Shown: positions 1 to 16,964 of the stretch, piece by piece
Layout of the letters: each line of letters begins with the position of its first letter
How positions within the stretch are numbered: the first letter of the stretch is position 1
Source: a virus
Lineage: Duplodnaviria > Heunggongvirae > Uroviricota > Caudoviricetes
IMG/VR virus record: IMGVR_UViG_2563366965_000003
Location: 1-18,490 of that record
Length of the DNA: 18,490 nt
Direction: 5' to 3' (one strand)
Position numbers and translations under genes: made by a program
Notes under the pieces: generated by a model
Told to the model about the DNA's origin: nothing
Databases searched by the model: none
The model's input: the letters and a program-made list of their open reading frames with translations, nothing else

Positions 1-204
1 CTAAATCAGTAAGTTGGCAGCATCACCATCTACGCCTTCCCTGAAAAATAGTTTCCCAGCCACTCCACATTTACTTGAAGGGCAGGTATGTCTTTCCGTT
101 CGATCAACAACAACCCAAAGTCTTGATTCATTTTTTGCCATTGCCGATGGTATTTGAGATGAGACAATTAACGTAAGCCCTAAAATTAGTATTGATTTTT
201 TCAT
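1..204 (-). CDS. small secreted protein of unknown function (prophage accessory gene)
   Basis: 67-aa ORF with stop at 1-3; N-terminus MKKSILILGLTLIVSSQIPSAMA resembles a Sec signal peptide; no family recognised. Confidence 0.4.
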   Translation of the reverse strand: MKKSILILGLTLIVSSQIPSAMAKNESRLWVVVDRTERHTCPSSKCGVAGKLFFREGVDGDAANLLI

Positions 205-1554: not shown

Positions 1555-1709
1555 ACAGCCCCTCGTTTATTATTTATCTCCTCAGCCAGCCGCTGTGCTT
1601 TCAGTGGATTTCGGATAACAGAAAGGCCGGGAAATACCCAGCCTCGCTTTGTAACGGAGTAGACGAAAGTGATTGCGCCTACCCGGATATTATCGTGAGG
1701 ATGCGTCAT
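1527..1709 (-). CDS. lambda orf60a-like small protein
   Basis: 60 aa from the second Met of the listed ORF ([14 protein letters not shown]...); ATG overlaps exo TGA stop as ATGA; position matches lambda orf60a. Confidence 0.55.
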
Positions 1710-2386
1710 CGCCATTGCTCCCCAAATACAAAACCAATTTCAGCCAGTGCCTCGTCCATTTTTTCGATGAACACCGGCACCATCTCGTCAAAACTCGCCA
1801 TGTACTTTTCATCCCGCTCAACCACGACATAATGCGGTCCTTCACGCTTCATACGCGGGTCATAGTTGGCAAAGTACCAGGCATCTTTTCGTGTCACCCA
1901 CATGCTGTACTGCACCTGGGCCATGTAAGCCGACTTTATGGCCTCGAAACCACCGAGCCGGAACTTCATGAAATCCCGGGAGGTAAACGGGCATTTCAGC
2001 TCAAGGCCATTGCCGTCACTGCATAAACCATCGGGAGAGCAGGCGGTGCGCATACTTTCGTCGCGATAGATGATCGGGGATTCAGTAACATTCACGCCGG
2101 AAGTGAATTCAAACAGGGTTCTGGCGTCGTTCTCGTACTGTTTTCCCCATGCCAGCGCCTTAGCATTAACTTCCGGAGCCACACCGGTGCAAACCTCAGC
2201 CAGCAGGGTGTGGAAGTAGGACATTTTCATGTCAGGCCACTTCTTTCCTGAGCGGGGCTTGGCTATCACGTTGTGAACTTCTGAAGCGGTGATGACGCCG
2301 AGCCGTAATTTGTGCCATGCATCATCCCCCTGTTCGACAGCTCTCACGTCGATCCCGGTACGCTGCAGGATAATGTCCGGTGTCAT
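1706..2386 (-). CDS. exo: lambda exonuclease (Red-alpha), intact
   Basis: 226 aa, essentially identical to lambda Exo as I recall it ([65 protein letters not shown]...). Confidence 0.95.
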
Positions 2387-2829
2387 GCTGCCACCTTCTG
2401 CTCAGTGGCTTTCTGTTTCAGGAATCCAAGAGCTTTCACTGCTTCGGCCTGTGTCAGTTCTGACGATGCGCGAATGTCGCGGCGAAATATCTGGGAACAG
2501 AGCGGCAATAAGTCGTCATCCCATGTTTTGTCCAGGGCAATCAGCAGAGTGTTAATCTCCTGCATGGTTTCATCGTTAACCGGAGTAATGTCGCGTTCCG
2601 GCTGACGTTCTGCGGTGTATGCGGTATTTTCGACAATGCGCTCGGCTTCATCCTTGTCATAGATACCAGCAAATCCGAAGGCCAGACGGGCACACTGAAT
2701 CATGGCTTTATGCCGTAACATCCGTTTGGGATGCGACTGCCACGGCCCCGTAATTTCTCTGCCTTCGCGGGTTTTGAATGGTTCGCGGCGGCATTCATCC
2801 ATCCACTCGGTAACGCAGATCGGATGATT
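2383..2829 (-). pseudogene. bet: 5'-truncated bet (Red-beta) remnant; only about the C-terminal 149 codons remain
   Basis: Translation from 2829 downward matches the lambda Bet C-terminal half (..NHPICVTEWMDECRREPFKTREGREITGPWQSHPKRMLRHKAMIQCARLAFGFAGIYDKDEAERIVEN..); similarity stops at about 2830 and an in-frame stop lies at 2839-2841; N-terminal annealing domain absent. Confidence 0.85.
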
Positions 2830-2988
2830 ACCGGTTCGCTACCAGGGAAGAACGGGAAGGAAAGGTGAGCACGAATCTGATTTTCAAGGAGTGTCGCCAG
2901 AGTGCCGCGATGAAGCGGGTGTTGGCATTTTATCGCGGCAATTTTCAATAGACTATGTACATAAAAATATCATTTTTTTAATACATGT

Positions 2989-3180
2989 CTAATTATTGGA
3001 CGAAATTGGTTTTTGCTTTGGTTTAGTTAGCCTAGCAATCAAGCCAGAGGCAATAATGATGATCCAAGCAATTTGATGCAATGCTACTCCAATATAAGAA
3101 CCTTTATAGATAATAAAGGCATAGATCGCTAGAAACGAAATAAATATCCATAACGAAAGTTGATAAATTTTGGCGCGCAT
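2989..3180 (-). CDS. small two-helix hydrophobic membrane protein
   Basis: 63 aa from ATG at 3180 (MRAKIYQLSLWIFISFLAIYAFIIYKGSYIGVALHQIAWIIIIASGLIARL...); two hydrophobic stretches; AT-rich; divergent from the lipoprotein operon. Confidence 0.35.
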   Translation of the reverse strand: MRAKIYQLSLWIFISFLAIYAFIIYKGSYIGVALHQIAWIIIIASGLIARLTKPKQKPISSNN

Positions 3181-3436
3181 ATTTAATCCAATCAATCAGA
3201 AAGACGAGTAATCATAGAGGTACTATCACCCGGGTAACTATTGCTATTATGAACGGATAGGATAGAGGCTTCAATAACATATGCATCAAGTATGATGGAA
3301 TATGTAGGTGAAAATGACTTGTGTCAAATTTGTGGAAATGAGTACCATGTTTCTCTGAAATTGATGTCGTTAATGGCTAGTGATAGTGAACTTTTTTACT
3401 TTATAATTCCTTTGGTTATAACAATAAGGTAAATTT

Positions 3437-3997
3437 ATGAAGAAGATAATATTATTAGCCATGATTATTGGTTCTTTAACAGGTTGCGCTAGTGTGCCAC
3501 CATTGAATTTTTCAACACCTAACGTGGGAGTTAGCCAGAAAAAAATAGATGCTGAAATTAAGTCATTAACGGTATCACTTGCTCGTCCAGATGAGCAGAA
3601 AGGGGATATCACTGCTGGTATGGAGGCTATAACTCCAATTTGGCGTGAATCTTTGCAGGAAGCACTCGACCGAATGACTATTTTTCGTGATAGTTCACCA
3701 AATACGGTTAGCTTAAATGTTAAAGTGTTGGCTCTTGACGTTCCTGCTTTTGGTGTTTCAATGACAACTAAAGCAATTGCAAGGTATGAAATAATCAACC
3801 GTGCGAATGGTGATATTATATATACGCAGGATATTGAGTCTACCGGTACTGTTCCAGCCAGTTACGCATTCTACGGTATTGTTCGAGCACGCGAATCTGT
3901 TAATCGCGCGGTGCAAAACAACATAACGCAGTTCTTGCAAGCATTAGAAAGTGTTGATCTTTCTCGTCCAATGTTTCCTGTTAGGGTAGCTAAATGA
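3437..3997 (+). CDS. lipoprotein of unknown function, likely outer-membrane targeted
   Basis: 186 aa; signal peptide plus lipobox MKKIILLAMIIGSLTG-C (Cys17, +2 Ala); stop overlaps next gene start (ATGA); faint pattern resemblance to YajG-type lipoproteins, from memory only. Confidence 0.7.
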   Translation: MKKIILLAMIIGSLTGCASVPPLNFSTPNVGVSQKKIDAEIKSLTVSLARPDEQKGDITAGMEAITPIWRESLQEALDRMTIFRDSSPNTVSLNVKVLALDVPAFGVSMTTKAIARYEIINRANGDIIYTQDIESTGTVPASYAFYGIVRARESVNRAVQNNITQFLQALESVDLSRPMFPVRVAK

Positions 3998-4446
3998 AGC
4001 GATTATTCGTAATTGCTCCACTCTTAGTGTTGGTTGGATGCGCACAAAATATATCGCCAAATAGTTATTCTGTTGGCTCTGTGGGCATGGTTAATCGAAC
4101 TATCGCTGGTACAGTTATTAGTGCTAGGGGGGTTGATATCAGTGGGACTTCCGCGTTAGGCGGGACTGCTGGGGCTGCCGTGGGGGCAACCGCTGGTTCT
4201 GCGCTTGGTGGGGGAGTTCGTTCTAATATCGTTGGTGCCGTTGGTGGTGCAGTCATTGGTGGTATTGCCGGGGCAGCAATCGAATCTTCAGCAACAAAAC
4301 AAACAGGCATGGAATATGTTGTCGAAACTGAGAATGGGAATTTAATGACCATTGTTCAAGGCAAAGATCCGTTATTTACTCAAGGAAGTAAGGTCCTTGT
4401 TTTATACGGAAACCCTTCTCGCATAATAACAGACCCGCGTCACTAA
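3994..4446 (+). CDS. SlyB-like glycine-zipper outer-membrane lipoprotein (PCP / 17-kDa-antigen family)
   Basis: 150 aa; lipobox LLVLVG-C (Cys16); long Gly/Ala-rich zipper GTSALGGTAGAAVGATAGSALGGGVRSNIVGAVGGAVIGGIAGAAI followed by a beta-rich C-terminal domain; overall architecture parallels E. coli SlyB. Confidence 0.75.
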   Translation: MKRLFVIAPLLVLVGCAQNISPNSYSVGSVGMVNRTIAGTVISARGVDISGTSALGGTAGAAVGATAGSALGGGVRSNIVGAVGGAVIGGIAGAAIESSATKQTGMEYVVETENGNLMTIVQGKDPLFTQGSKVLVLYGNPSRIITDPRH

Positions 4447-4636
4447 CATACCTTTTGATTTTGTAAAATCAATTCGTAATAATAAAGTCATCGGAGCTTG
4501 AACAACTCCGGTGACTTCTGCGCTAAACGGGGACGTTTATGCGCACATACAATCCAAACTCTCTTCTCCCTTCACAGATGCAGAAATGCACCTGCGATTT
4601 TTTGCATCCAGCGTCTGACCTCTGCGGAGGTGAAGC

Positions 4637-5092
4637 GTGAACCTACCACAAGATGGCATCAAACTGCATCGCGGTAACTTCACCGCTATCGGCCAGCAGA
4701 TCCAGCCTTATCTGGAGGACGGAAAATGCTTTCGCATGGTGCTTAAACCGTGGCGTGAGAAACGCAGTCTTTCCCAGAATGCACTCAGCCACATGTGGTA
4801 CAGCGAAATCAGTGAATACCTCATCAGCAGGGGGAAATCGTTCGCTACCGCAGCATGGGTAAAAGATGCTCTCAAACACACATACCTCGGTTATGAAACC
4901 AAGGACCTGGTTGATGTCGTAACCGGCGAAATCACTACTATCCAGTCGTTACGCCATACCTCCGATCTTGATACCGGAGAGATGTATATCTTCCTGTGTA
5001 AGGTTGAAGCCTGGGCGGTGAATATTGGCTGCCACCTGACTATTCCGCAGAGCTGCGAGTTCCAGCAGCTCCGCGACAAACAGGAGGCGTAA
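4637..5092 (+). CDS. ninB: NinB-family recombination protein (DLP12 YbcN-like)
   Basis: 151 aa; GTG start after GGAGG; conserved NinB core ([21 protein letters not shown]); first gene of a coupled nin cluster. Confidence 0.8.
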
Positions 5093-5262
5093 TGGCTACA
5101 CCGCTTATTCGTGTCATGAACGGACACATCTACAGAGTACCAAATCGTCGTAAGCGTAAACCGGAGCTGAAGCCTTCCGAAATACCAACACTGTTCGGAT
5201 ATACCGCCAGCCTGGTTGATAAAAAATGGTTGCGACTGGCAGCAAGGAGGAGTCATGGCTGA
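5092..5262 (+). CDS. ninE: NinE-like small protein
   Basis: 56-codon ORF read by hand ([56 protein letters not shown]); ATG overlaps ninB stop (TAATG); below the ORF-track length cutoff. Confidence 0.6.
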   Translation: MATPLIRVMNGHIYRVPNRRKRKPELKPSEIPTLFGYTASLVDKKWLRLAARRSHG

Positions 5263-5545
5263 TTTGAGAAAAGCAGCGCGTGGTCGGGAATGCCAGGTAA
5301 GAATCCCTGGCGTATGTAATGGCAACCCTGAAACGTCTGTACTGGCACATATCCGGCTGACTGGATTGTGCGGCACCGGTACGAAACCGCCAGACCTGAT
5401 TGCCACCATTGCATGTTCTGCCTGCCACGACGAAATCGACCGCCGCACACATTTTGTCGATGCTGCATATGCAAAAGAATGCGCGCTGGAAGGTATGGCG
5501 AGAACACAGGTTATCTGGCTGAAAGAGGGGGTTATTAAGGCGTGA
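5255..5545 (+). CDS. DUF1364-type Cys-rich nin-region protein (DLP12 YbcO-like)
   Basis: 96 aa from ATG at 5255 preceded by AGGAGG; Cys-rich ([11 protein letters not shown]...CSACHDEID); overlaps ninE and rusA. Confidence 0.7.
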
Positions 5546-5904
5546 ATACCTACAGCATCACATTACCCTGGCCTCCGAGCAATAATCGCTATTACCGCCA
5601 TAATCGCGGGCGCACACACATCAGCGCAGAAGGGCAGGCATACCGCGATAACGTCACCCGAATCATTAAAAACGCAATGCTGGATATCGGCCTGGCTATG
5701 CCAGTGAAAATCCGTATTGAGTGCCACATGCCGGATCGCCGTCGCCGTGACCTGGATAATCTGCAAAAAGCCGCTTTTGACGCACTCACCAAAGCAGGTT
5801 TCTGGCTGGATGATGCTCAGGTCGTTGATTACCGCGTTGTGAAGATGCCTGTTACCAAAGGTGGGAGGCTGGAACTGACCATCACCGAAATGGGGAATGA
5901 ATGA
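5542..5904 (+). CDS. rusA: RusA Holliday-junction resolvase
   Basis: 120 aa matching E. coli RusA nearly throughout ([26 protein letters not shown]...[31 protein letters not shown]). Confidence 0.9.
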
Positions 5905-6041
5905 TGTTTGAGTTTAATATGGCAGAACTTCTTCGCCACCGCTGGATGCGCCTGCGCTTATATCGTTTCCCCAGTTCTGTTTTGACCGATTACCGAATAC
6001 TGAGGAATTACGCCAAAACCCTGACAGGAGCAGGAGTATGA
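5901..6041 (+). CDS. ylcG: YlcG-like small protein
   Basis: 46-codon ORF ([46 protein letters not shown]); ATG overlaps rusA stop (ATGA); same position as ylcG in DLP12. Confidence 0.5.
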
Positions 6042-6126
6042 AGTCAGAGATAACAATCAACTAATACTGTTTTATTGATTTTTGCTTGTAATTGGCGTTC
6101 TGGTCTGATTTTTGTGGAGTAAGTTG

Positions 6127-6510
6127 ATGCGTGATATTCAGATGGTTCTTGAGCGTTGGGGAGCGTGGGCGGCTAATAATCATGAAGATGTGACCTGGTC
6201 GTCCATTGCCGCCGGTTTTAAGGGATTAATTACTTCAAAAGTAAAATCTCGCCCGCAATGTTGTGACGATGACGCGATGATCATTTGCGGGTGCATGGCC
6301 CGTCTGAAAAAGAACAACAGCGATTTGCACGATTTATTAGTAGATTATTATGTAGTCGGTATGACATTCATGTCACTGGCAGGTAAGCATTGCTGCTCTG
6401 ATGGTTATATCGGGAAAAGGTTACAGAAGGCTGAGGGTATAATTGAAGGGATGTTAATGGCATTAGATATCCGGTTAGAGATGGATATCGTTGTTAATAA
6501 CTCTAATTAA
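6127..6510 (+). CDS. quuD: late-gene antiterminator Q (DLP12 QuuD-like)
   Basis: 127 aa from ATG at 6127 with GGAG 7 nt upstream (ORF track starts at TTG 6112); Cys-rich zinc-binding region ([13 protein letters not shown]...HCCSDG); directly follows rusA/ylcG as in lambdoid late-control modules. Confidence 0.75.
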
Positions 6511-6542
6511 TATGCCAATTGTTTACTAAAAATTATTAAAAA

Positions 6543-6560
6543 TGGGGCGTTGAGACGCCC
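6543..6560 (-). terminator. stem-loop; probable intrinsic terminator for the convergent porin gene
   Basis: GGGGCGT/ACGCCCC 7-bp stem; on the minus strand followed by ATTTTTAATAATTTTT; two further hairpins at 6628-6649 and 6650-6683 lie between Q and the porin stop. Confidence 0.4.
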
Positions 6561-6698
6561 CCAAAAATAAAGGGTAATATATAACAGAAGGTTTATATAG
6601 TTAGAAGCAAGGTTGTGCTCCTAAAGGAAGTGGCTTGAGGGAGCCACTTATATGTTGGGGAGGCAAAGCCTCCCGCAACATATCTTTTAGTAATCAAA

Positions 6699-7781
6699 TT
6701 AGAACTGGTAAACCATACCTACAGCAACGATATCATCGGTAGCAACGCCAGATGCTTTCGTGAAATCGCTCTTATCAATCAGGTTGATTTTGTAATCAAC
6801 AAAAGTGGACATATTTTTGTTGAAGTAATAGGTTGCACCTACATCAATATATTCAACCAGGTCCTGATCACCCCACGCACCCAAGTCTTTTCCTTTAGAT
6901 TGCAGGTAAGCAACGGACGGACGCAGACCGAAGTCGAACTGATATTGTGCAACTACTTCGAAGTTTTGTGCTTTGTTGGCAATATGGTTATTACCAAAAA
7001 CAGTCATGTTCTGGGTTTCAGAATAGGTGGTAGCCAGATAGATGTTGTTCGCATCATATTTCAGACCAGCTGCCCATACTTCAGCATTTTGACCAGATGC
7101 ATTCAGGCTGTTGTTACCGTAGATAACCTGATTATTAGTGCGGTCAGATTTAGCATAGGTTGCACCTACACCGAATCCTTCATACTCATAAGTAGTGGAG
7201 AAACCGAAACCATCACCATTAGCTTCAGTTACGTCAGTGCGGTCATTTTTACCCTGATACTGAGCAGCAAAGTTCAGACCATCAACCAGACCAAAGAAGT
7301 CATTGTTACGATAAGTTGCAACACCTGTGGTGCGACCAGTCATGAATACATCTGTTTGGGTCCAGGTATCGCCACCGAATTCTGGCAGAACGTCGGTCCA
7401 TGCACCAATATCGTATGCTACACCGTAGTTACGGCCATAATCGATGGAGCCGTAGTCACCGAATTTCAGGCCAGCGAAGGCAAGACGGGTTTTATCTTTG
7501 GAGGAACCTTGAGATTCAGCGCGGTTGCCTTTGAATTCATATTCCCACTGACCGAAACCAGTCAGTTGATCGTTGATTTGGGTTTCACCTTTGAAGCCAA
7601 GACGGGCATAAGTAGTATCACCATCATCTGCATCATTAGAGGAGAAGTAGTGCTTAGCATTAACTTTCCCGTACAGATCCAGCTTGTTACTGTCTTTATT
7701 ATAAATTTCAGCTGCCTGAGCAGACATCGCCATCAGTACTGATGCAGCTACAGCAGAAATTGCCACTGTTAATTTTTTCAT
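6699..7781 (-). CDS. nmpC: general porin, OmpC/NmpC/Lc family (prophage lysogenic-conversion porin), apparently intact
   Basis: 360 aa from ATG at 7781 ([23 protein letters not shown] signal peptide, AEIYNKD mature start, C-terminal ...VGMVYQF); sits between Q and the lysis cassette as nmpC does in DLP12 and lc in PA-2. Confidence 0.85.
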
Positions 7782-8207
7782 CGTGAGCCCTTTTTTTGAA
7801 CTATTATTAAAAAATGATGTCACTGCGCGATAAATATTCATCTAATCAATGTGATTATTTCAAGATGTAAGTTTTGGTTTCTCATTTGATTTGTGAAGTA
7901 GATCTCTATTTTTATCTGAACTTTTTCTATCGAATCCTATTCATGGCTCTTGGCTGAATAAAAATAAATCTATTAGCCAATTTATATTAATGGCTGTTAT
8001 TTATGAGTGCTCTATAATTTGAAGATTCAATTTAAACCAGCTAAAAATAACGCTGGAAATTATTTGTTGGTTATTTGTTGAGATTTGCTTATGTATTTGT
8101 AGTGGTGTTTTCAATACTCGGTAGCATTCTCGCAAATATCATTTAGTGGTTTACGTACGTAAAAAATTGGTTATGCTGTTAAGAGTGGTTACTTCGTCAC
8201 ACAGCTT

Positions 8208-8236
8208 AAACCCGCCGTCGAGCGGGTTTTTCCATT
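8208..8236 (+). terminator. intrinsic terminator upstream of the lysis cassette (tR'-like)
   Basis: AAACCCGC cgtcga GCGGGTTTTTCCATTTTTT: GC-rich stem followed by T-runs on the plus strand, about 130 nt upstream of the holin start. Confidence 0.45.
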
Positions 8237-8368
8237 TTTTGAGTCTCGATATTAGCTGATAACCCAATACCTGAGTTATTCACTGACTCCGAGTCTGTTA
8301 CGTTTCTGCTTTTTTGCGATACGTTGTATTCCCTCAATTTACACCCGCTTTGTCTGCGAGGTGGGGTT

Positions 8369-8584
8369 ATGAAATCCATGGATAAGTTAACAACGGGTGT
8401 CGCCTATGGCACCTCAGCAGGTAGTGCCGGTTACTGGTTTTTACAGCTGCTCGATAAAGTCACGCCCTCACAGTGGGCAGCAATAGGTGTGCTGGGTAGC
8501 CTGGTATTTGGCCTGCTGACGTACCTGACAAACCTTTATTTCAAGATTAAAGAAGATAAGCGCAAGGCTGCGAGAGGTGAATAA
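8369..8584 (+). CDS. essD: class II pinholin (phage 21 S21 / DLP12 EssD type) with dual-start motif
   Basis: 71 aa ([26 protein letters not shown]...[15 protein letters not shown]); Met1-Lys-Ser-Met4 dual start; GAGGTGGGG upstream; two TMDs. Confidence 0.85.
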
Positions 8585-9081
8585 TGCCTCCATCATTACG
8601 AAAAGCCGTTGCTGCTGCTATTGGTGGCGGAGCAATTGCTATAGCATCAGTGTTAATTACTGGCCCAAGTGGTAACGATGGTCTGGAAGGTGTCAGCTAC
8701 GTACCATACAAAGATATCGTTGGCGTATGGACTGTATGTCACGGACACACCGGAAAAGACATCATGCTCGGTAAAACGTATACCAAAGCAGAATGCAAAG
8801 CACTCTTGAATAAAGACCTTGCCACTGTCGCCAGACAAATTAACCCGTACATCAAAGTCGATATACCGGAAACAACGCGCGGCGCTCTTTACTCATTCGT
8901 TTACAACGTGGGTGCTGGCAATTTCAGAACATCGACGCTTCTTCGCAAAATAAACCAGGGCGATATCAAAGGCGCATGTGATCAGCTACGTCGCTGGACA
9001 TATGCTGGCGGTAAGCAATGGAAAGGTCTCATGACTCGTCGTGAGATTGAGCGTGAAATCTGTTTGTGGGGTCAGCAATGA
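8584..9081 (+). CDS. rrrD: SAR endolysin (phage 21 R21 / DLP12 RrrD-type lysozyme)
   Basis: 165 aa; Gly/Ala-rich weakly hydrophobic N-terminal signal-anchor-release domain ([18 protein letters not shown]) then lysozyme domain; ATG overlaps holin stop (TAATG). Confidence 0.85.
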
Positions 9082-9539
9082 ACAGAGTAACCGCGATTAT
9101 CTCCGCTCTGGTTATCTGCATCATCGTCTACCTGTCATGGGCTGTTAATCATTACCGTGATAACGCCATTACCTACAAAGCCCAGCGCGACAAAAATGCC
9201 AGAGAACTGAAGCTGGCGAACGCGGCAATTACTGACATGCAGATGCGTCAGCGTGATGTTGCTGCGCTCGATGCAAAATACACGAAGGAGTTAGCTGATG
9301 CGAAAGCTGAAAATGATGCTCTGCGTGATGATGTTGCCGCTGGTCGTCGTCGGTTGCACATCAAAGCAGTCTGTCAGTCAGTGCGTGAAGCCACCACCGC
9401 CTCCGGCGTGGATAATGCAGCCTCCCCCCGACTGGCAGACACCGCTGAACGGGATTATTTCACCCTCAGAGAGAGGCTGATCACTATGCAAAAACAACTG
9501 GAAGGAACCCAGAAGTATATTAATGAGCAGTGCAGATAG
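9078..9539 (+). CDS. rzpD: Rz i-spanin (lambda type)
   Basis: 153 aa from ATG at 9078 ([29 protein letters not shown]...), matching lambda Rz except a few residues; N-terminal TMD. Confidence 0.85.
9298..9480 (+). CDS. rzoD: Rz1 o-spanin lipoprotein, embedded in the +1 frame of Rz
   Basis: 60 aa ([24 protein letters not shown]...[16 protein letters not shown]); lipobox VVG-C, proline-rich; wholly inside the Rz reading frame. Confidence 0.8.
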
Positions 9540-9570
9540 AGTTGCCCATATCGATGGGCAACTCATGCAA

Positions 9571-9864
9571 TTATTGTGAGCAATACACACGCGCTTCCAG
9601 CGGAGTATAAATGCCTAAAGTAATAAAACCGAGCAATCCATTTACGAATGTTTGCTGGGTTTCTGTTTTAACAACATTTTCTGCGCCGCCACAAATTTTG
9701 GCTGCATCGACAGTTTTCTTCTGCCCAATTCCAGAAACGAAGAAATGATGGGTGATGGTTTCCTTTGGTGCTACTGCTGCCGGTTTGTTTTGAACAGTAA
9801 ACGTCTGTTGAGCACATCCTGTAATAAGCAGGGCCAGCGCAGTAGCGAGTAGCATTTTTTTCAT
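9571..9864 (-). CDS. bor: Bor lipoprotein (serum-resistance lysogenic-conversion protein)
   Basis: 97 aa (MKKMLLATALALLITGCAQQTFTVQNKPAAVAPKETITHHFFVSGIGQKKTVDAAKICGG...), lambda Bor as I recall it. Confidence 0.9.
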   Translation of the reverse strand: MKKMLLATALALLITGCAQQTFTVQNKPAAVAPKETITHHFFVSGIGQKKTVDAAKICGGAENVVKTETQQTFVNGLLGFITLGIYTPLEARVYCSQ

Positions 9865-10154
9865 GGTGTTATTCCCGATGCTTTTTGAAGTTCGCAGAAT
9901 CGTATGTGTAGAAAATTAAACAAACCCTAAACAATGAGTTGAAATTTCATATTGTTAATATTTATTAATGTATGTCAGGTGCGATGAATCGTCATTGTAT
10001 TCCCGGATTAACTATGTCCACAGCCCTGACGGGGAACTTCTCTGCGGGAGTGTCCGGGAATAATTAAAAACGATGCACACAGGGTTTAGCGCGTACACGT
10101 ATTGCATTATGCCAACGCCCCGGTGCTGACACGGAAGAAACCGGACGTTATGAT

Positions 10155-10688
10155 TTAGCGTGGAAAGATTTGTGTAGTGTTCTGAATGCTCTCAGTAAAT
10201 AGTAATGAATTATCAAAGGTATAGTAATATCTTTTATGTTCATGGATATTTGTAACCCATCGGAAAACTCCTGCTTTAGCAAGATTTTCCCTGTATTGCT
10301 GAAATGTGATTTCTCTTGATTTCAACCTATCATAGGACGTTTCTATAAGATGCGTGTTTCTTGAGAATTTAACATTTACAACCTTTTTAAGTCCTTTTAT
10401 TAACACGGTGTTATCGTTTTCTAACACGATGTGAATATTATCTGTGGCTAGATAGTAAATATAATGTGAGACGTTGTGACGTTTTAGTTCAGAATAAAAC
10501 AATTCACAGTTTAAATCTTTTCGCACTTGATCGAATATTTCTTTAAAAATGGCAACCTGAGCCATTGGTAAAACCTTCCATGTGATACGAGGGCGCGTAG
10601 TTTGCATTATCGTTTTTATCGTTTCAATCTGGTCTGACCTCTTTGTGTTTTGTTGATGATTTATGTCAAATATTAGGAATGTTTTCAC
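10155..10688 (-). CDS. DUF1398-type protein (DLP12 YbcV-like / lambda right-end orf)
   Basis: 177-aa ORF (alternative start at internal MQTTRPR gives about 150 aa); position after bor matches the lambda/DLP12 right end. Confidence 0.65.
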
Positions 10689-10850
10689 TTAATAGTATTG
10701 GTTGCGTAACAAAGTGCGGTCCTGCTGGCATTCTGGAGGGAAATACAACCGACAGATGTATGTAAGGCCAACGTGCTCAAATCTTCATACAGAAAGATTT
10801 GAAGTAATATTTTAACCGCTAGATGAAGAGCAAGCGCATGGAGCGACAAA

Positions 10851-11057
10851 ATGAATAAAGAACAATCTGCTGATGATCCCTCCGTGGATCTGATTCGTGT
10901 AAAAAATATGCTTAATAGCACCATTTCTATGAGTTACCCTGATGTTGTAATTGCATGTATAGAACATAAGGTGTCTCTGGAAGCATTCAGAGCAATTGAG
11001 GCAGCGTTGGTGAAGCACGATAATAATATGAAGGATTATTCCCTGGTGGTTGACTGA
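10851..11057 (+). CDS. YbcW-like small protein
   Basis: 68 aa ([40 protein letters not shown]...); position and length as DLP12 ybcW. Confidence 0.5.
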
Positions 11058-11221
11058 TCACCATAACTGCTAATCATTCAAACTATTTAGCCTGTGACAG
11101 AGCCAACACGCAGTCTGTCACTGTCAGGAAAGTGGTAAAACTGCAACTCAATTACTGCAATGCCCTCGTAATTAAGTGAATTTACAATATCGTCCTGTTC
11201 GGAGGGAAGAACGCGGGATGT

Positions 11222-11416
11222 TCATTCTTCATCACTTTTAATTGATGTATATGCTCTCTTTTCTGACGTTAGTCTCCGACGGCAGGCTTCAATGACCCAG
11301 GCTGAGAAATTCCCGGACCCTTTTTGCTCAAGAGCGATGTTAATTTGTTCAATCATTTGGTTAGGAAAGCGGATGTTGCGGGTTGTTGTTCTGCGGGTTC
11401 TGTTCTTCGTTGACAT
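11222..11416 (-). CDS. YlcI-like small basic protein (DUF3950)
   Basis: 64 aa (MSTKNRTRRTTTRNIRFPNQMIEQINIALEQKGSGNF...); last gene before cos as in the lambda/DLP12 right end. Confidence 0.55.
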   Translation of the reverse strand: MSTKNRTRRTTTRNIRFPNQMIEQINIALEQKGSGNFSAWVIEACRRRLTSEKRAYTSIKSDEE

Positions 11417-11559
11417 GAGGTTGCCCCGTATTCAGTGTCGCTGATTTGTATTGTCTGAAGTTGTTTTTACGTTAAGTTGATGCAGATCAATTAATACGAT
11501 ACCTGCGTCATAATTGATTATTTGACGTGGTTTGATGGCCTCCACGCACGTTGTGATAT

Positions 11560-11800
11560 GTAGATGATAATCATTATCACTTTACGGGTCCTTTCCGGTG
11601 ATCCGACAGGTTACGGGGCGGCGACCTCGCGGGTTTTCGCTATTTATGAAAATTTTCCGGTTTAAGGCGTTTCCGTTCTTCTTCGTCATAACTTAATGTT
11701 TTTATTTAAAATACCCTCTGAAAAGAAAGGAAGCGACAGGTGCTGAAAGCGTGCTTTTTGGCCTCTGTCGTTTCCTTTCTCTGTTTTTGTCCGTGGAATG
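11560..11800. other. lambda cos site (cosQ-cosN-cosB); cosN 12-nt cohesive end at 11616-11627
   Basis: ...TTACGGGTCCTTTCCGGTGATCCGACAGGTTACG | GGGCGGCGACCTCGCGGGTTTTCGCTATTTATGAAAATTTTCCGGTTTAAGGCG... reproduces the lambda right and left genome ends as I recall them. Confidence 0.85.
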
Positions 11801-11804
11801 AACA

Positions 11805-11864
11805 ATGGAAGTCAACAAAAAGCAGCTGGCTGACATTTTCGGTGCGAGTATAAGTTCTGATTAG
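11805..11864 (+). pseudogene. nu1: nu1 (terminase small subunit) stump: 16 native codons, then deletion junction and premature stop
   Basis: ATGGAAGTCAACAAAAAGCAGCTGGCTGACATTTTCGGTGCGAGTAT = MEVNKKQLADIFGASI; identity to lambda ends at about 11851, followed by SSD-stop. Confidence 0.75.
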
Positions 11865-11886
11865 CCAGGTAACACAGTGTTATGAC

Positions 11887-11914
11887 AGCCCGCCGGTTCA
11901 GGCGGGCTTTTTTG
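11887..11914 (+). terminator. intrinsic terminator immediately upstream of stf
   Basis: AGCCCGCC ggttca GGCGGGCT followed by TTTTTT. Confidence 0.55.
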
Positions 11915-11924
11915 TGGGGTGAAT

Positions 11925-14888
11925 ATGGCAGTAAAGATTTCAGGTGTACTGAAAGACAGCACAGGAAAACCGGTACAGAACTGCACAATCCAGCTGAAAG
12001 CAAAACGTAACAGCACCGCGGTGGTGGTGAACACGCTGGCCTCAGAAAATCCGGATGAAGCCGGGCGTTACAGCATGGACGTTGAGTACGGTCAGTACAG
12101 CGTTATTCTGTTGGTGGAAGGATTCCCGCCGTCACATGCCGGGACCATCACCGTGTATGAAGATTCCCGACCCGGTACGCTGAATGATTTTCTCGGTGCC
12201 ATGACGGAGGATGATGCCCGTCCGGAGGCTCTGCGCCGTTTTGAACTGATGGTGGAAGAGGTGGCGCGTAACGCGTCCGCAGTGGCACAGAACACGGCAG
12301 CCGCGAAGAAGTCAGCCAGTGATGCCAGCACATCTGCCAGTGAGGCGGCAACTCATACAACCGATGCTGCAGGCTCAGCTCGTGCCGCCAGCACGTCAGC
12401 CGGACAGGCTGCATCATCTGCTCAGTCAGCATCTTTCAGCGCAGGAACGGCATCAACAAAGGCCAGTGAAGCATCGAAAAGTGCTGCTGCTGCAGAGTCC
12501 TCAAAAAGCGCGGCAGCTACCAGTGCCGCTGCGGCGAAAACGTCAGAAACGAATGCGGCAGCGTCACAACAATCAGCAGCCACTTCTGCATCCGCCGCGA
12601 CCACGAAGGCGTCAGAAGCTGCCACCTCAGCCCGGGATGCGGCGGCCTCAAAAGAGGCGGCAAAATCATCAGAAACGAGCGCAGCCTCGAGCGCCAGTAG
12701 TGCAGCCTCCTCGGCAACAGCGGCAGGAAATTCCGCGAAGGCGGCAAAAACGTCCGAGACGAACGCTAAGTCTTCTGAGACGGCAGCAGCACAGAGTGCC
12801 TCCGCAGCAGCAGACTCAAAAACAGCGGCTGCCTCATCTGCCAGCGCCGCGTCAACAAATGCCGGGCAGGCCTCAGCCAGTGCCACCGCTGCCGGAAAGT
12901 CGGCAGAAAGCGCCGCATCATCCGCTTCAACAGCCACAACGAAGGCTGGCGAAGCCACTGAACAGGCCACGGCAGCAGCGAGGTCAGCTTCCGCAGCGAA
13001 GACATCCGAAACGAACGCGAAAGCGTCGGAAACCAGCGCAGAATCCTCAAAAACGGCTGCCGCATCGTCAGCCAGTTCGGCGGCGTCATCGGCATCATCG
13101 GCGTCTGCTTCAAAAGATGAGGCGACCAGACAGGCGTCAGCAGCGAAGGGCAGCGCCACGACGGCATCCACGAAGGCGACAGAGGCAGCTGGCAGTGCGA
13201 CGGCGGCAGCTCAGAGCAAAAGTACGGCGGAATCCGCGGCAACGCGCGCCGAGACAGCAGCAAAACGGGCAGAGGATATTGCATCCGCCGTGGCGCTTGA
13301 GGATGCGAGCACGACGAAAAAGGGGATAGTACAGCTCAGCAGTGCGACTAACAGCACTTCCGAGTCACTGGCGGCAACGCCAAAAGCCGTTAAGGCCGCG
13401 TATGAGCTGGCTAACGGGAAATACACCGCACAGGATGCAACGACAGCACAGAAAGGGATAGTTCAGCTTAGCAACGCGACCAACAGCACATCTGAAATGC
13501 TGGCGGCAACGCCAAAGTCGGTAAAGGCAGCCTATGACCTTGCTAACGGGAAATATACTGCTCAGGACGCTACGACAGCACAAAAAGGAATTGTCCAGCT
13601 CAGTAGTGCAACCAACAGCGCATCTGAAACGCTTGCCGCGACACCGAAAGCAGTGAAAGCAGCTAATGATAATGCGAATGGTCGGGTACCTTCTGCCCGT
13701 AAGGTGAATGGTAAGGCGCTTTCAGCGGATATAACACTGACGCCGAAAGATATTGGTACGCTTAACTCAACAACAATGTCATTCAGCGGTGGTGCTGGTT
13801 GGTTCAAATTAGCAACGGTAACCATGCCACAGGCGAGTTCTGTTGTTTCAATTACGTTGATTGGTGGCGCGGGATTTAACGTGGGGTCACCTCAACAGGC
13901 AGGTATATCTGAACTTGTTTTGCGTGCAGGTAATGGTAATCCGAAGGGGATTACTGGTGCTTTATGGCAGCGCACATCGACAGGGTTTACAAATTTTGCC
14001 TGGGTCAATACATCTGGTGATACTTACGATATTTACGTTGCAATCGGAAATTATGCGACTGGTGTAAATATTCAATGGGATTATACCAGTAATGCCAGCG
14101 TGACGATTCATACGTCACCAGCATATTCTGCTAATAAGCCGGAAGGGTTAACGGACGGTACAGTTTATTCACTCTATACGCCATCAGAGCAGTTTTATCC
14201 GCCTGGCGCACCAATCCCGTGGCCATCAGATACCGTTCCGTCTGGCTATGCCCTGATGCAGGGGCAGACTTTTGACAAATCTGCATACCCGAAACTTGCA
14301 GCCGCTTATCCGTCAGCCGTGATCCCTGATATGCGTGGCTGGACGATTAAGGGCAAACCCGCCAGTGGTCGTGCCGTATTGTCTCAGGAACAGGACGGCA
14401 TTAAATCGCACACCCACAGCGCCAGCGCATCCAGTACGGATTTGGGGACGAAAAACACATCGTCGTTTGATTACGGAACCAAATCCACGAATAACACCGG
14501 GGCGCATACCCATAGTATTAGCGGGACTGCAAATAGTGCCGGTGCGCACCAACACAAGAGTTCCGGTGCATTTGGTGGCACGAACACGAGCATTTTCCCT
14601 AATGGTTATACCGCGATTTCAAATCTAAGCGCGGGGATTATGAGCACAACAAGCGGTAGTGGCCAGACTCGTAATGCAGGGAAGACATCATCAGATGGTG
14701 CTCATACCCACTCGCTGTCCGGCACTGCTGCAAGCGCAGGCGCACATGCACATACTGTCGGTATTGGTGCTCATACGCACTCCGTTGCGATTGGCTCACA
14801 CGGACACACCATCACCGTTAACGCTGCTGGTAACGCGGAAAACACCGTCAAAAACATCGCATTTAACTATATTGTGAGGCTTGCATAA
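11925..14888 (+). CDS. stf: side tail fibre protein Stf (lambda-type, expanded repeats)
   Basis: 987 aa from ATG 11925 ([31 protein letters not shown]...), lambda Stf N-terminus; Ala/Ser/Thr-rich shaft; three tandem fibre repeats; His-rich tip ending ...[14 protein letters not shown]. Confidence 0.9.
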
Positions 14889-15469
14889 TGGCATTCAGAA
14901 TGAGTGAACAACCACGGACCATAAAAATTTATAATCTGCTGGCCGGAACTAATGAATTTATTGGTGAAGGTGATGCATATATTCCGCCTCATACAGGTCT
15001 GCCAGCAAACAGTACCGATATTGCACCGCCAGATATTCCGGCTGGCTTCGTGGCTGTTTTCAACAGTGATGAGTCATCGTGGCATCTTGTTGAAGACCAT
15101 CGGGGTAAAACAGTTTATGACGTGGCATCAGGGGACGCGTTATTTATTTCTGAACTCGGCTCATTACCGGAAAATGTTACCTGGTTATCCCCGGAAGGGG
15201 AGTTTCAGAAGTGGAACGGCACAGCCTGGGTGAAGGATACGGAAGCAGAAAAACTGTTCCGGATCCGGGAGGTGGAAGAAACAAAAAACAGCCTGATGCA
15301 GGTAGCCAGTGAGCATATAGCGCCGCTTCAGGATGCTGTGGATCTGGAAATCGCAACGGAGGAAGAAACCTTGTTGCTGGAAGCCTGGAAAAAGTATCGG
15401 GTATTGCTGAACCGTGTTGATACGTCAACTGCACAGGATATTGAATGGCCAGTAGCACCTATAGGGTAA
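14888..15469 (+). CDS. tfa: tail fibre assembly chaperone Tfa
   Basis: 193 aa ([54 protein letters not shown]...), lambda Tfa; ATG overlaps stf stop (TAATG). Confidence 0.9.
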
Positions 15470-15549
15470 ATTCGTAATGATTACCTAAATACGTTATTCT
15501 TTTGTTCAAAAAGTGATTTTGCTATAGATAGGGAGTATGTTCTTGGATT

Positions 15550-15584
15550 AAGAATAAAAATCGCCATGAAAGAGCTTCATGGCG
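15550..15584 (-). terminator. putative minus-strand intrinsic terminator in the tfa-att spacer
   Basis: 9-bp stem CGCCATGAA/TTCATGGCG (15562-15584); on the minus strand followed by ATTTTTATTCTT. Confidence 0.35.
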
Positions 15585-16327
15585 AGTACATAAACGTACA
15601 AAATGTGATGAAAGTAGAGTGGCGTAAGCCACTATATTAAGATGTGACAATAGCGAAGAAAAGTAAATAACATTTTATGGACGTTTAATTGTTAATTATA
15701 AAAACTAGAGTGCCCGATATTGTTTACCTTGCTTTAAAATAATGTACTCAAACCAAATTTTTGAGCTAAAAGCTCAAATAATATAAATGCAATAATAATG
15801 TTTAATAAGACAATTAGCTTGCTTTGTATTTTCATTTCGGAATACTGTTAAGTAACTTTGATGACCCTAACAATAGATCGGAATTTTCTTAGAGTCAATG
15901 GTCACTGTTTTTGCTTGCAAAGCAAATGTTTTGGTGGTTATAAGTTGTCTTAATATAGTCACGCATGCAACTTGTTCCATGCGGAGATTAAAGATTGGAA
16001 TATAACGCTAAGATGGAATTAAATTACATTTGCAATAATCAATTTATTATTACTCAATAATTACCGATATTATTATTGTAAATTAATCATTAGAGTGCAA
16101 AAAGAAATGTAACGGCAAAATAAGAGGACGATAGCTGAGAAAAAAGCGTGCTTTCCCAATCTGGGGCAAATCACGTCTGAATGACACCTGAAAACAGGTG
16201 GTAGCCTCAAGAAGGCTTGGAATATTCTTCTTTAATGTTATGTAATTCATTGATTTTTCGTGTACGATTTAAAGACATTTATTCCAAGAAAAATTTTTAA
16301 CTCTTTGATTTTTCGACTCTGTATCAT

Positions 16328-16389
16328 CGGTCTCGAAAACCGGAGTAGGGGCAACTCTACCGGGGGTTCAAATCCCCCTCTCTCCGCCA
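16328..16389 (+). tRNA. partial tRNA-Ser(CGA) (serU-like), 3' 62 nt only; probable prophage attR core
   Basis: CGGTCTCGAAAACCGGAGTAGGGGCAACTCTACCGGGGGTTCAAATCCCCCTCTCTCCGCCA = anticodon stem-loop (CGA), long variable arm, T-arm, 3' acceptor strand and CCA; no complementary 5' acceptor strand (GGAGAGA) upstream. Confidence 0.7.
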
Positions 16390-16964
16390 CTTTATCAATG
16401 ACTTATCTCCCGACTTCCCGCCTTGCTTTTCCTAAACAGAACAATCGTAGAATATTCTTGAAGGGTTAGATCGTCACTGTTTTCTGTTCGATACTGTGAC
16501 ATTCAGCACTTGATTCGCTATGGATCTGACAGGAAGGTTTTGAGCGAAAATTTGCAGTTATTCAGTCGTTTTCTTATCGGTCACCATTATTCTTTTAGAC
16601 ATTGATCCTACAAAGCTGCCGCAAAGTTGGTGGTGGGAACTGAAGTTGCGTAGAGAAGGGGTCAATACCCGGAGGCAAACATGGGCTGGCAAAAGTGTAG
16701 CGGTATTAGGCGCAGCTATTTAGCCTAGTTATGTTTTATGAAAACTTGATATCATATAAGTGTCTTACTTATTGGCTGTAAATAAGTTTTTCCTAAGGAA
16801 TTGTTTCTTGAGTATCATTTGTAACTGTAACGGAATTTATAATCCTTTGCTTTATTGTTACGGTATTTTTTATCACACCCTATTTTTTATGTGGTTTTTT
16901 ATACTGAAGTTTGGCAAAGTGAACTTTATATGCATATACTTCATCCTGGTTTCAGTTAAGTTGG

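Follow-up and report, generated by a model that had tools for sequence, protein, structure and literature searches.

A grounded lambdoid prophage related to DLP12 that lost its immunity and replication genes in a bet-to-ren deletion

The window, which is the whole 18,490-nucleotide stretch of viral DNA analysed here, is 100% covered at 99.9% identity in the genome of Escherichia coli 1332KP, where it lies between ybhC and ybhB/bioA. The complete element bounded by att sites is 23.4 kb long (positions 7304-30729 of locus L001). The lambda att core GCTTTTTTATACTAA occurs exactly at L001 7304, and a second copy with one mismatch is found at L001 30715. Int carries the Phage_integrase and lambda Arm-DNA-binding domains (Pfam) and adjoins the att core, and Xis is annotated in the 1332KP element. 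Since Int, Xis and the two att cores seem undamaged, the element may still be excised with help in trans. Its modules follow each other in the lambdoid order of exo/bet, nin, Q and SRRz, colinear with those of phage PhiR30_1. Just to the left of the window, two IS1 copies bracket foreign DNA (L001 9005-11972) that encodes a DUF2513 protein and two ORFs without a family and contains pseudogene fragments. The two unassigned genes to the left of the window gave nothing in PADLOC and have no tie to known defence systems. The sole helix-turn-helix (HTH) protein of the prophage is an AraC-family (YdeO/AppY-like) regulator at 16965-17717. ARAGORN found no tRNA or tmRNA. A search of the whole window against Rfam at the gathering threshold returned a single match, IS009 at 15231-15429, and none in 2830-4640. 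The element is an ordinary grounded (defective) lambdoid prophage, a relative of DLP12 rather than DLP12 itself. The features around its two deletion junctions are collected in Table 1.

Table 1. Coordinates of the main features discussed, numbered from the first base of the window
Feature	Position	Strand	Basis or remark
exo (lambda exonuclease), intact, 226 aa	1706-2386	-	97.8% DNA identity to PhiR30_1 exo
bet/RecT remnant, C-terminal 148 codons kept, N-terminal 113 gone	2383-2829	-	tblastn
Deletion junction 1	2827-2829		alignment with PhiR30_1 bet and ren, exact string comparison
ren remnant, 3' 122 bp, last ~40 codons, stop TAG 2949-2951	2830-2951	+	tblastn
68-aa ORF, two hydrophobic helices by eye	2989-3195	-	no Pfam, PHROGs, NCBIfam or PADLOC match
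AT-rich spacer with divergent promoter-like hexamers	3196-3436		consensus scan
Lipoprotein 1, 186 aa, lipobox LTGC, phrog_12521	3437-3997	+	PHROGs, AF2, Foldseek
Lipoprotein 2, 150 aa, lipobox LVGC, SlyB homologue, phrog_13877	3994-4446	+	phmmer, PHROGs
nin operon leader: putative -35 4455-4460, -10 4478-4483, inverted repeat 4487-4515	4455-4515	+	phage 82 alignment
orf33 (ylcH-like), 33 codons	4539-4640	+	overlaps ninB/ybcN start at 4637
nin-Q block: ninB/ybcN, ninE, ybcO, rusA, ylcG, quuD	4637-6510	+	Pfam
Deletion junction 2, Nu1 codon ~16 fused to lom 3' end	11849-11851		blastn against PhiR30_1, string comparison, tblastn

The exo gene is followed by a bet gene that has been cut short. What is left corresponds to residues 114-261 of bet at 99.3% identity (tblastn), and RefSeq lists it as a pseudogene 'missing N-terminus'. 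Base 2830, the first past the junction, opens a remnant of ren that matches residues 54-97 at 93% identity (tblastn) and appears in RefSeq as 'protein ren ... missing N-terminus'. The preliminary description had the sequence pass straight from the bet remnant to a lipoprotein islet and on to ninB; the order is right, but the passage is not direct, the ren remnant having been overlooked. It had placed the limits of this region accurately, at the first post-junction base and at 4640, the end of orf33. The ren remnant fixes the right breakpoint, beyond which colinearity with PhiR30_1 resumes at position 10532 of that phage. The bet side of the junction reads GATCGGATGATT followed by GCGG, the ren side GGTGTATT followed by ACCGG, and the window GGATGATT followed by ACCGG. 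Three base pairs (ATT) are common to the two sides, and they sit inside an imperfect 8-of-12 patch at 2818-2829. The alignments indicate a simple bet-to-ren deletion with two clean breakpoints. The lost segment amounts to 6.37 kb as judged by PhiR30_1 (4170-10531) and to 6.64 kb (6,644 bp) as judged by the prophage of strain EC21Z-101, and its size and gene content are to be read as estimates because PhiR30_1 differs from the element in its integrase and in details of the left arm.

The same junction was found exactly in 19 of 5,426 complete genomes, using a 121-bp spanning query of which at least 80% had to match; strains 1332KP, NCTC9040 and FORC_081 are among those that have it. These 19 genomes come from different hosts and laboratories, and the one match listed is 100% identical. 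That the join was produced by a collapsed or chimeric assembly is therefore next to inconceivable, as it recurs in 19 independent complete genomes and at least 80% of the whole window is present, at 99.9% identity, in 22.

Where the element has its gap, PhiR30_1 and the EC21Z-101 prophage, the intact relatives, possess gam, kil, cI, cro, cII, O and P, and by alignment the DNA of PhiR30_1 4170-10531 is not present in the window. The whole prophage and its flanks, a locus of 42.5 kb, were searched by tblastn with queries taken from two phages whose cI, cro and cII alleles differ, and no homologue of gam, kil, cIII, N, cI, cro, cII, O or P was detected. The sole matches were the bet and ren residues given above and residues 1-18 of Nu1; all others had E > 0.01. 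Among the ORFs of at least 33 aa in 2830-4640, Pfam, PHROGs, NCBIfam and PADLOC revealed no HTH, CI, Cro, N, O or P family. No S24 or HTH_3-type repressor domain was matched by Pfam in any prophage ORF scanned, and the unassigned ORFs inside and to the left of the window include no repressor, Cro, N, O or P according to Pfam and the annotation. HMM scans, tblastn and the comparison with intact relatives thus bear out the earlier statement that 2830-4640 contains no repressor, N, cro, O or P.

The module could in principle have been moved within the prophage by inversion or transposition, perhaps by way of the two IS1 copies on the left, which enclose foreign DNA and so testify to past rearrangements in the element. 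Such a move is extremely improbable, however, because tblastn finds no cI, cro, cII, N, O, P, gam or kil in the whole att-bounded element (L001 7304-30729), and because its 23.4 kb are explained by the 47.4-kb relative minus two deletions, plus IS1 and cargo. The preliminary description had allowed for a functional module elsewhere in the same prophage, and the search of the full element lends this no support. With no such module anywhere between the att sites, the sequence comparisons show that it was lost and not rearranged.

Several small ORFs (2989-3195, orf33 and 1-204) match no family, an AraC-family gene lies at the right end, and the 'possible regulator-binding site' marked upstream of orf33 in phage 82 is kept here at 4487-4515. 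A surviving non-canonical switch, with the 68-aa ORF, orf33, one or more left-arm ORFs or the AraC-type regulator controlling the remnant, is nevertheless very unlikely. The same small ORFs and the inverted repeat coexist with cI and cro in other phages and so do not stand in for immunity, the candidate small ORFs have no DNA-binding domain signature, and the AraC gene is terminal cargo, like appY in DLP12. Moreover, no replication or morphogenesis genes are left, so that there is no lysogeny decision to control.

Between the ren remnant and the nin leader lies an islet (2952-4452) with a G+C content of 39.8%, compared with 48-53% in its flanks. It is rare among phage records, being present in 1 of 50,697. 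Its AT-richness, its rarity and its position directly to the right of the junction would fit a module replacement, in which the islet was swapped in for the immunity and replication region in one event. This, too, has an exceedingly small chance of being correct. PhiR30_1 carries an identical islet (100% over 1,589 bp) between an intact ren and ninB, the EC21Z-101 prophage likewise holds it beside an intact ren, and, of 280 islet-bearing E. coli genomes, 256 were shown by a query spanning P, ren and the islet to have an undeleted ren beside it. In the window itself, the 122 bp of ren stand between the junction and the islet. These comparisons identify the islet as a pre-existing cargo cassette and not a replacement for the immunity region.

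The islet encodes two lipoproteins in overlapping genes and, on the opposite strand, the 68-aa ORF, whose counterpart in PhiR30_1 is a hypothetical protein (10703-10894). Neither lipoprotein, nor the 68-aa ORF, orf33 and a 67-aa ORF at the left edge, matched anything in NCBIfam or PADLOC. Lipoprotein 1 belongs to a conserved proteobacterial family, with 512 homologues of 60-87% identity from Klebsiella, Bordetella and Xanthomonas, among others. RefSeq assigns it to the YajG family, and it had no Pfam or NCBIfam match at E <= 0.1 or 0.01. Its AF2 model (pLDDT 84) has an alpha/beta fold resembling LptE, PelC, CsgG and DUF330, with TM-scores of only 0.43-0.56 (Foldseek, PDB). The widely used database name 'UDP-N-acetylglucosamine acyltransferase' is almost certainly wrong, as the modelled fold gives it no support. 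Lipoprotein 2 matches SlyB over its full length (PDB 7ojf, residues 2-149 against 3-155, E = 1.3e-14, phmmer); its glycine-zipper Pfam matches are weak, with Rick_17kDa_Anti at 21.1 bits, below the cut-off of 24.2. By homology it is a SlyB-type glycine-zipper outer-membrane lipoprotein. The pair represents a conserved bacterial envelope operon taken up as cargo by a lambdoid phage.

Head and tail genes amounting to 19.3 kb are missing in a second gap relative to PhiR30_1 (19653-38970, blastn), and the triplet TAT is common to both sides of the junction left there. Terminase, head and tail queries (A, E and J) had no tblastn match in the 42.5-kb locus, where only the first residues of Nu1 remain.

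The ancestral state is seen in two relatives. PhiR30_1 (PV340558.1) is a complete lambdoid genome of 47.4 kb that is colinear with the window at 94-98% (100% in the islet) apart from the two gaps. Colinearity extends over the left arm to exo, then over ren, the islet, nin, Q, the porin, the lysis genes, bor and ybcV/W, and continues through the cos region as far as the tail-fibre gene and tfa. It differs in keeping the 6.37-kb bet-gam-kil-cI-cro-cII-O-P-ren segment and the 19.3-kb Nu1-lom morphogenesis segment, and also in having another integrase (a 1,164-bp gene) and a left arm with differences that include a Dam-type methyltransferase. No paper on this phage came up in a literature search on PhiR30 and on the induction of ECOR prophages. 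The EC21Z-101 prophage (NZ_CP101240.1) occupies the same lambda att site and has the same Xis accession. It is 97.5% identical from about position 739 through exo and the bet remnant, and 99.6% identical from ren through the islet. Unlike the element, it retains the full series from bet, gam and kil through an S24 repressor, cro, a YdaT/cII-like gene, O, P and ren to the islet in canonical order, and it has a DUF3037/HipA-like kinase pair, an IS2 in orf33 and other cargo between Q and the holin.

The resemblance to DLP12 of E. coli K-12 is concentrated on the right-hand side, where orf33, ybcN, ninE, ybcO, rusA, ylcG, quuD, the porin gene, essD, rrrD, rzpD, bor, ybcV, ybcW and ylcI follow each other at 96-97% DNA identity (window 4453-11851) and the protein accessions of QuuD, EssD, YbcW and YlcI are the same in both. 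Both elements end in an AraC-type regulator (appY in DLP12), and DLP12 also is without a repressor, cro, N, O and most morphogenesis genes, with just a fragment of P. However, DLP12 is inserted at argU (tRNA-Arg) and has another integrase (IntD), whereas the element described here lies at the lambda att site and has lambda-type Int and Xis. The cargo between ren and ninB is emrE-ybcK-ybcL-ybcM in K-12 and the two lipoproteins here; IS5 adjoins the K-12 porin gene, while no IS is annotated beside the porin gene here; and K-12 has a whole nohD (Nu1), which in our element is cut after about 16 codons. The deletion end points also differ, being exo'-'P in K-12 and bet'-'ren here. We considered whether junction 1 and the K-12 deletion were one ancient event and rejected this, as K-12 joins exo' to 'P and has a whole ren split by IS3. 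A further junction, bet'-'ninB in MB06021, could be an independent third deletion or a secondary one spanning the bet-ren join. Rac and Qin of K-12 still hold at least some immunity-region genes (the dicBF immunity region of Qin and a transcription factor of Rac), while the present element is without any. As grounded lambdoid remnants, Rac and Qin too have been stripped of morphogenesis and other modules (PMC6379469).

The element is thus very probably a DLP12-family prophage at lambda att that was grounded by a bet-ren illegitimate-recombination deletion and a Nu1-lom deletion and now persists as a remnant. In a single illegitimate-recombination event, bet was joined after its codon 113 to ren at about codon 57, with the loss of some 6.4-6.6 kb that in intact relatives hold gam, kil, the pL/N-side early genes, cI with its operators and promoters, cro, cII, P and the origin-containing O. 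Another deletion of like type, from Nu1 to lom, removed all head and tail genes. As a consequence of both deletions, the remnant should be unable to maintain or switch immunity, to replicate or to form particles, and would be inherited passively. Still present are exo, the nin-Q block, the porin gene, SRRz and bor, along with the tail-fibre gene, the gene of the AraC-type regulator and the two-lipoprotein cassette. What looks in the raw sequence like a missing module is a clean, datable deletion whose intact ancestral state is still circulating. The same functional segment is gone, with other end points, from at least two more DLP12-family or att-lambda prophages, and in three lineages the deletions each span the whole pL-cI-pR-O segment plus part or all of P. 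Lambda biology offers a reason for such whole-segment deletions, since loss of cI alone would be expected to derepress kil, N and in-situ replication and so kill the host. The pattern agrees with the generally held opinion that prophages become grounded when a deletion takes out the repressor along with lethal early functions. The appropriate annotation is that of a defective prophage and not of an inducible one, and the significance of the finding beyond annotation is small.

With the loss of transcription driven from pL and pR, any expression of the remaining genes would have to use local promoters. The spacer between the 68-aa ORF and lipoprotein 1 contains candidate promoters on the plus strand at 3380-3407 (GTGATA-16-TATAAT) and on the minus strand at 3327-3299 and 3274-3246; promoter-like sites are not enriched here (9 found against 13 expected from shuffles, over 2700-8700), and these are candidates only. 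A terminator-like hairpin lies downstream of the porin start, at 8208-8229. It is conceivable, though unlikely, that the deletion rewired the remnant, with the cassette promoters feeding the orphaned arms and giving rise to a domesticated envelope-remodelling or vesiculation module. The minus-strand candidates (3327-3246) would then read across what is left of ren and bet into exo and the left arm, and the plus-strand promoter (3380-3407) and the orf33 leader (4455-4515) would read into nin-Q. If these promoters were active, envelope stress would bring about joint expression of the LptE-fold lipoprotein and the SlyB homologue with Q and SRRz.

Together with orf33, the conserved leader takes up 4453-4640. 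The leader features align with ones marked 'putative' in the phage 82 record (X92588), and the hexamers were also picked up in the promoter scan. Downstream, the nin-Q block is 97.2% identical to that of K-12 DLP12, and QuuD is a Q21-family antiterminator that matches PDB 6jnx/6p18 (E = 8e-7). The porin, bor and similar cargo genes run from their own promoters in intact lysogens too, and the preliminary description, which had presented own-promoter expression of the Q, lysis, porin and bor genes as a consequence of immunity loss, therefore drew too strong a conclusion. By analogy, expression of Q and the lysis genes from their own or host promoters agrees with the DLP12 literature: in K-12 the SRRz operon of DLP12 is controlled by the prophage Q protein and by host RpoE and Hha (PMC7918800).

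The prophage in this window is an ordinary defective lambdoid element of the DLP12 family, with a well-defined immunity/replication deletion of 6.4-6.6 kb. The E. coli 1332KP chromosome matches all 18,490 bp of the window (megablast; 99.9% identity, 100% coverage), and at least 80% of the window is present in 22 of 5,426 complete E. coli genomes. In 1332KP the element occupies the attachment site of phage lambda, with ybhC on one side and ybhB/bioA on the other. On L001, the 42.5-kb 1332KP locus, copies of the lambda att core GCTTTTTTATACTAA lie at 7304 and, with one mismatch, at 30715; chance alone would give no copy. This puts the length of the prophage at 23.4 kb. The window (L001 12001-30490) spans most of it; outside, on the left, are int, xis and a cargo segment bracketed by IS1. 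Pfam recognises both the lambda arm-binding domain and the catalytic domain in the integrase. Between the IS1 copies lie an unassigned ORF of 126 aa, the gene of a DUF2513 protein, a fragment named "DNA repair protein" and a pseudogene interrupted by a stop codon. Coordinates are collected in the table.

Features of the prophage and matching blocks (window coordinates unless a locus or phage is named)
Feature	Position	Strand	Remarks
Two IS1 copies, opposite orientation	L001 9005-11972		left of window; bracket foreign cargo in prophage left arm
67-aa ORF	1-204		signal-peptide-like N-terminus; window begins just past IS1A
exo, intact	1706-2386	-	
bet/RecT fragment	2383-2829	-	
ren fragment, 122 bp	2830-2951	+	stop 2949-2951
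68-codon ORF	2989-3195	-	apparently two membrane (hydrophobic) helices; AT-rich part of islet
AT-rich spacer			between 68-codon ORF and lipoprotein genes
Candidate sigma-70-like hexamers	3327-3299 and 3274-3246	-	AT-rich spacer
Candidate sigma-70-like hexamers, divergent	3380-3407	+	AT-rich spacer; 30 bp ahead of lipoprotein ATG
Lipoprotein genes, overlapping pair	3437-3997 and 3994-4446		
Lipoprotein pair, window and bacterial loci	3437-4446; L009 4001-5013; L012 6001-7010; L014 4001-5022		
Putative -35/-10 pair and 29-bp inverted repeat	4455-4515		upstream of orf33-ninB
33-codon ORF (orf33)	4539-4640		behind conserved leader
ninB/ybcN	starts 4637		
Strong hairpin	6544-6561		between quuD and porin 3' end
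Porin gene (annotated ompC; nmpC/lc-like)	6699-7781	-	between quuD and essD
Terminator-like hairpin	8208-8229		AAACCCGC...GCGGGTTT then T-run; 140 bp upstream of holin gene essD
Junction 2	11849-11851		Nu1 after ~16 codons fused to lom 3' end; TAT common to both sides
Tail-fibre protein, 988 aa	11925-14888		Ala/Ser/Thr-rich low-complexity tract, ~330 aa
Rfam IS009 (RF02111)	15231-15429		218 bits, gathering score 117; within tail fibre assembly gene 14888-15469
Very AT-rich stretch, ~1.5 kb	15470-16964		31-37% GC; no annotated gene
AraC-family regulator	16965-17717		best NCBIfam similarity YdeO, below cut-off
blastn blocks, gap 1	1552-2829; 2818-11203		PhiR30_1 2893-4169; 10532-18917
blastn blocks, gap 2	11207-11851; 11849-13384		PhiR30_1 19008-19652; 38971-40505

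The preliminary description, made by a model from the sequence alone, held that no repressor, cro, N, O or P lies between the recombination and nin modules. This is borne out: scans with Pfam, PHROGs, NCBIfam and PADLOC find no HTH, CI, Cro, N, O or P family in any ORF of the interval, and the only matches are NinB, two PHROGs of unknown function (the lipoproteins) and weak glycine-zipper matches. Its boundaries are exact (bet fragment ending at 2829, ninB/ybcN starting at 4637). Between bet and the two-lipoprotein islet (2952-4452; 1.5 kb, 39.8% GC) lies a ren remnant that had been overlooked. The 68-aa ORF of the islet is annotated in phage PhiR30_1, absent from the RefSeq annotation of 1332KP and without a family match in any library scanned.

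PhiR30_1 (PV340558.1) is a complete Escherichia phage of 47,390 bp, 99.5% identical to window 2818-5200. Its order is exo-bet-gam-kil-(three hypothetical genes)-cI-cro-cII-O-P-ren-(small ORF)-(two lipoproteins)-ninB-ybcO-rusA-ylcG-Q-porin-S-R-Rz-bor-ybcV-ybcW-...-Nu1-A-...-J-lom-stf-tfa. The window aligns to it by blastn in colinear blocks with two gaps. At the first, the parental sequences are ...GATCGGATGATT/GCGGTC in bet and ...GAACGGTGTATT/ACCGGTTC in ren, and the window reads ...GATCGGATGATTACCGGTTC. Only ATT is common to both parents, inside an imperfect 8-of-12 patch. As read from its sequence, the junction is the signature of illegitimate recombination; with only ATT shared, its appearance does not fit a site-specific or IS-mediated origin. 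Residues 114-261 of Bet and ~57 to 97 of Ren survive (tblastn), and both truncated genes are already carried as pseudogenes in RefSeq.

The islet occurs in 280 of the 5,426 genomes, and its identity there is never below 99%. Of these 280, 256 contain an essentially complete match to a query that runs from the P 3' end through the whole of ren into the islet start, and the 121-mer across the junction occurs in just 19 of the 5,426. The prophage of EC21Z-101, with the same att site and the same Xis protein, has the intact P-ren-islet arrangement. The deletion is therefore a derived, minority and lineage-restricted state. The EC21Z-101 early region is complete and canonical (bet, gam, kil, a DUF3037/HipA-like kinase pair, S24 repressor, cro, YdaT/cII-like, O, P, ren, islet), and by comparison the window is missing 6,644 bp. 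The islet did not take the place of the immunity region; it sits in a variable cargo slot from ren to ninB, which holds emrE-ybcK-ybcL-ybcM in K-12 DLP12. In EC21Z-101 the DUF3037 and HipA-family kinase genes (L008 5667-7240) adjoin the S24 repressor on the pL side, and may be immunity-region cargo with a toxin or defence role.

A rearrangement would have left the missing module elsewhere in the prophage, a check that the preliminary description had proposed. The full 42.5-kb locus was searched by tblastn with gam, kil, cI, cro, cII, O and P of PhiR30_1 and with cIII, ea10, ral, sieB, N, cI, cro, cII, O and P of PhiR63_2, whose cI, cro and cII differ in length from the PhiR30_1 alleles. Apart from the bet, ren and Nu1 fragments, neither set gave anything better than E = 0.01. 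In the remaining ORFs of the window and the rest of the prophage, Pfam recognises Ead/Ea22, TraR/DksA zinc finger, DUF1382, DUF1317, DUF2513, NinE, YbcO, RusA, Phage_antitermQ, DUF1398 and DUF3950, with a single AraC-family regulator, and no regulator-like or replication-like gene was found in the IS1-bracketed segment. Judged by these searches, the module is absent from the whole element, a loss and not a rearrangement.

At the second gap the window has lost the 19.3 kb that hold terminase, head and tail genes in PhiR30_1 (blastn, tblastn), and it keeps the cos-proximal stretch upstream of Nu1 (11207-11851). The preliminary interpretation is supported with three corrections: the ren remnant, an islet older than the deletion, and this second, morphogenesis deletion. 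The phenomenon is a textbook one, and the element is a further case of it.

Over window 4453-11851 the identity to K-12 DLP12 is 96-97%, and the QuuD, EssD, YbcW and YlcI protein accessions are the same in both. K-12 DLP12 (L005 17994-20143) has lost the same functional segment with other end points, exo'/'P, beyond which IS3 interrupts ren. In MB06021 the prophage at att-lambda (L006 8614-9274) joins bet to mid-ninB; this bet'/'ninB junction could be an independent event or a secondary deletion. By lambda biology, loss of cI alone would switch on kil, N, O and P of a prophage, with lethal effect on the cell. Presumably only deletions that remove the repressor plus both early arms survive, which would be why their extents are similar. 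The pattern fits the "grounded prophage" concept (PMC6379469). An IS5 copy separates quuD and the porin gene in K-12, whereas no IS is annotated beside the porin in the window.

In lambda-type genomes pL, pR, pRM, pRE, the nut sites and ori lie inside the deleted interval, and the deletion would have taken them all. The signals at 4455-4515, at the right edge of the cargo slot, line up with annotations called "putative" in the phage 82 record X92588, where the inverted repeat is a "possible regulator-binding site"; they are kept in the window, PhiR30_1, phage 82 and K-12 DLP12. Promoter-like sites are no commoner than in shuffled sequence, so the candidate signals are not evidence of function. 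Within 7842-8207 no promoter scored as high as the scan threshold. From its position, the hairpin upstream of essD may be a tR'-like site for the action of QuuD, a member of the Q21 structural family. The SRRz operon of K-12 DLP12 is controlled by a Q-type antiterminator, host RpoE and Hha, and affects vesiculation (PMC7918800). Given this control and the 95.6% identity of the porin-essD intergenic region to K-12, the earlier statement that the remaining genes would use their own or host promoters agrees with published work on the closest relative. Such dependence of the cargo genes (bor, porin) would hold without the deletion too.

The first islet protein, of 186 aa and with the lipobox LTGC, is one of 512 detected members of a family with no Pfam domain; relatives 60-87% identical occur in Klebsiella, Bordetella, Xanthomonas, Lysobacter, Stenotrophomonas and others. 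Its AlphaFold2 model (pLDDT 84, pTM 0.78) has the alpha/beta lipoprotein fold of LptE, PelC, CsgG and DUF330, a likeness at fold level only (TM 0.43-0.56). The family's frequent database name, "UDP-N-acetylglucosamine acyltransferase", finds no support in the predicted fold. The second (150 aa, lipobox LVGC) is homologous along its full length to SlyB (PDB 7ojf, E = 1.3e-14), a glycine-zipper outer-membrane lipoprotein of the outer-membrane stress response (bioRxiv 10.64898/2026.06.08.730324). Chromosomes of Bordetella genomosp. 12, Klebsiella oxytoca and Stenotrophomonas also carry the overlapping ~186 + ~150 aa pair, in a non-phage setting and with gene 2 counterparts at 62-69% identity. The islet is thus a conserved envelope operon of bacteria that a phage has taken up as cargo, and in the lysogen it might, at a guess, serve envelope stabilisation or superinfection exclusion.

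At the right end, the AraC-family regulator occupies the position of appY in DLP12, and IS fragments lie between it and the att site. The DNA of the tail-fibre low-complexity tract has 58-62% GC and an AT skew of up to +0.43, and three ~47-aa repeats (…KGIVQLS.ATNS.SE.LAATPK.VKAA…) follow it.
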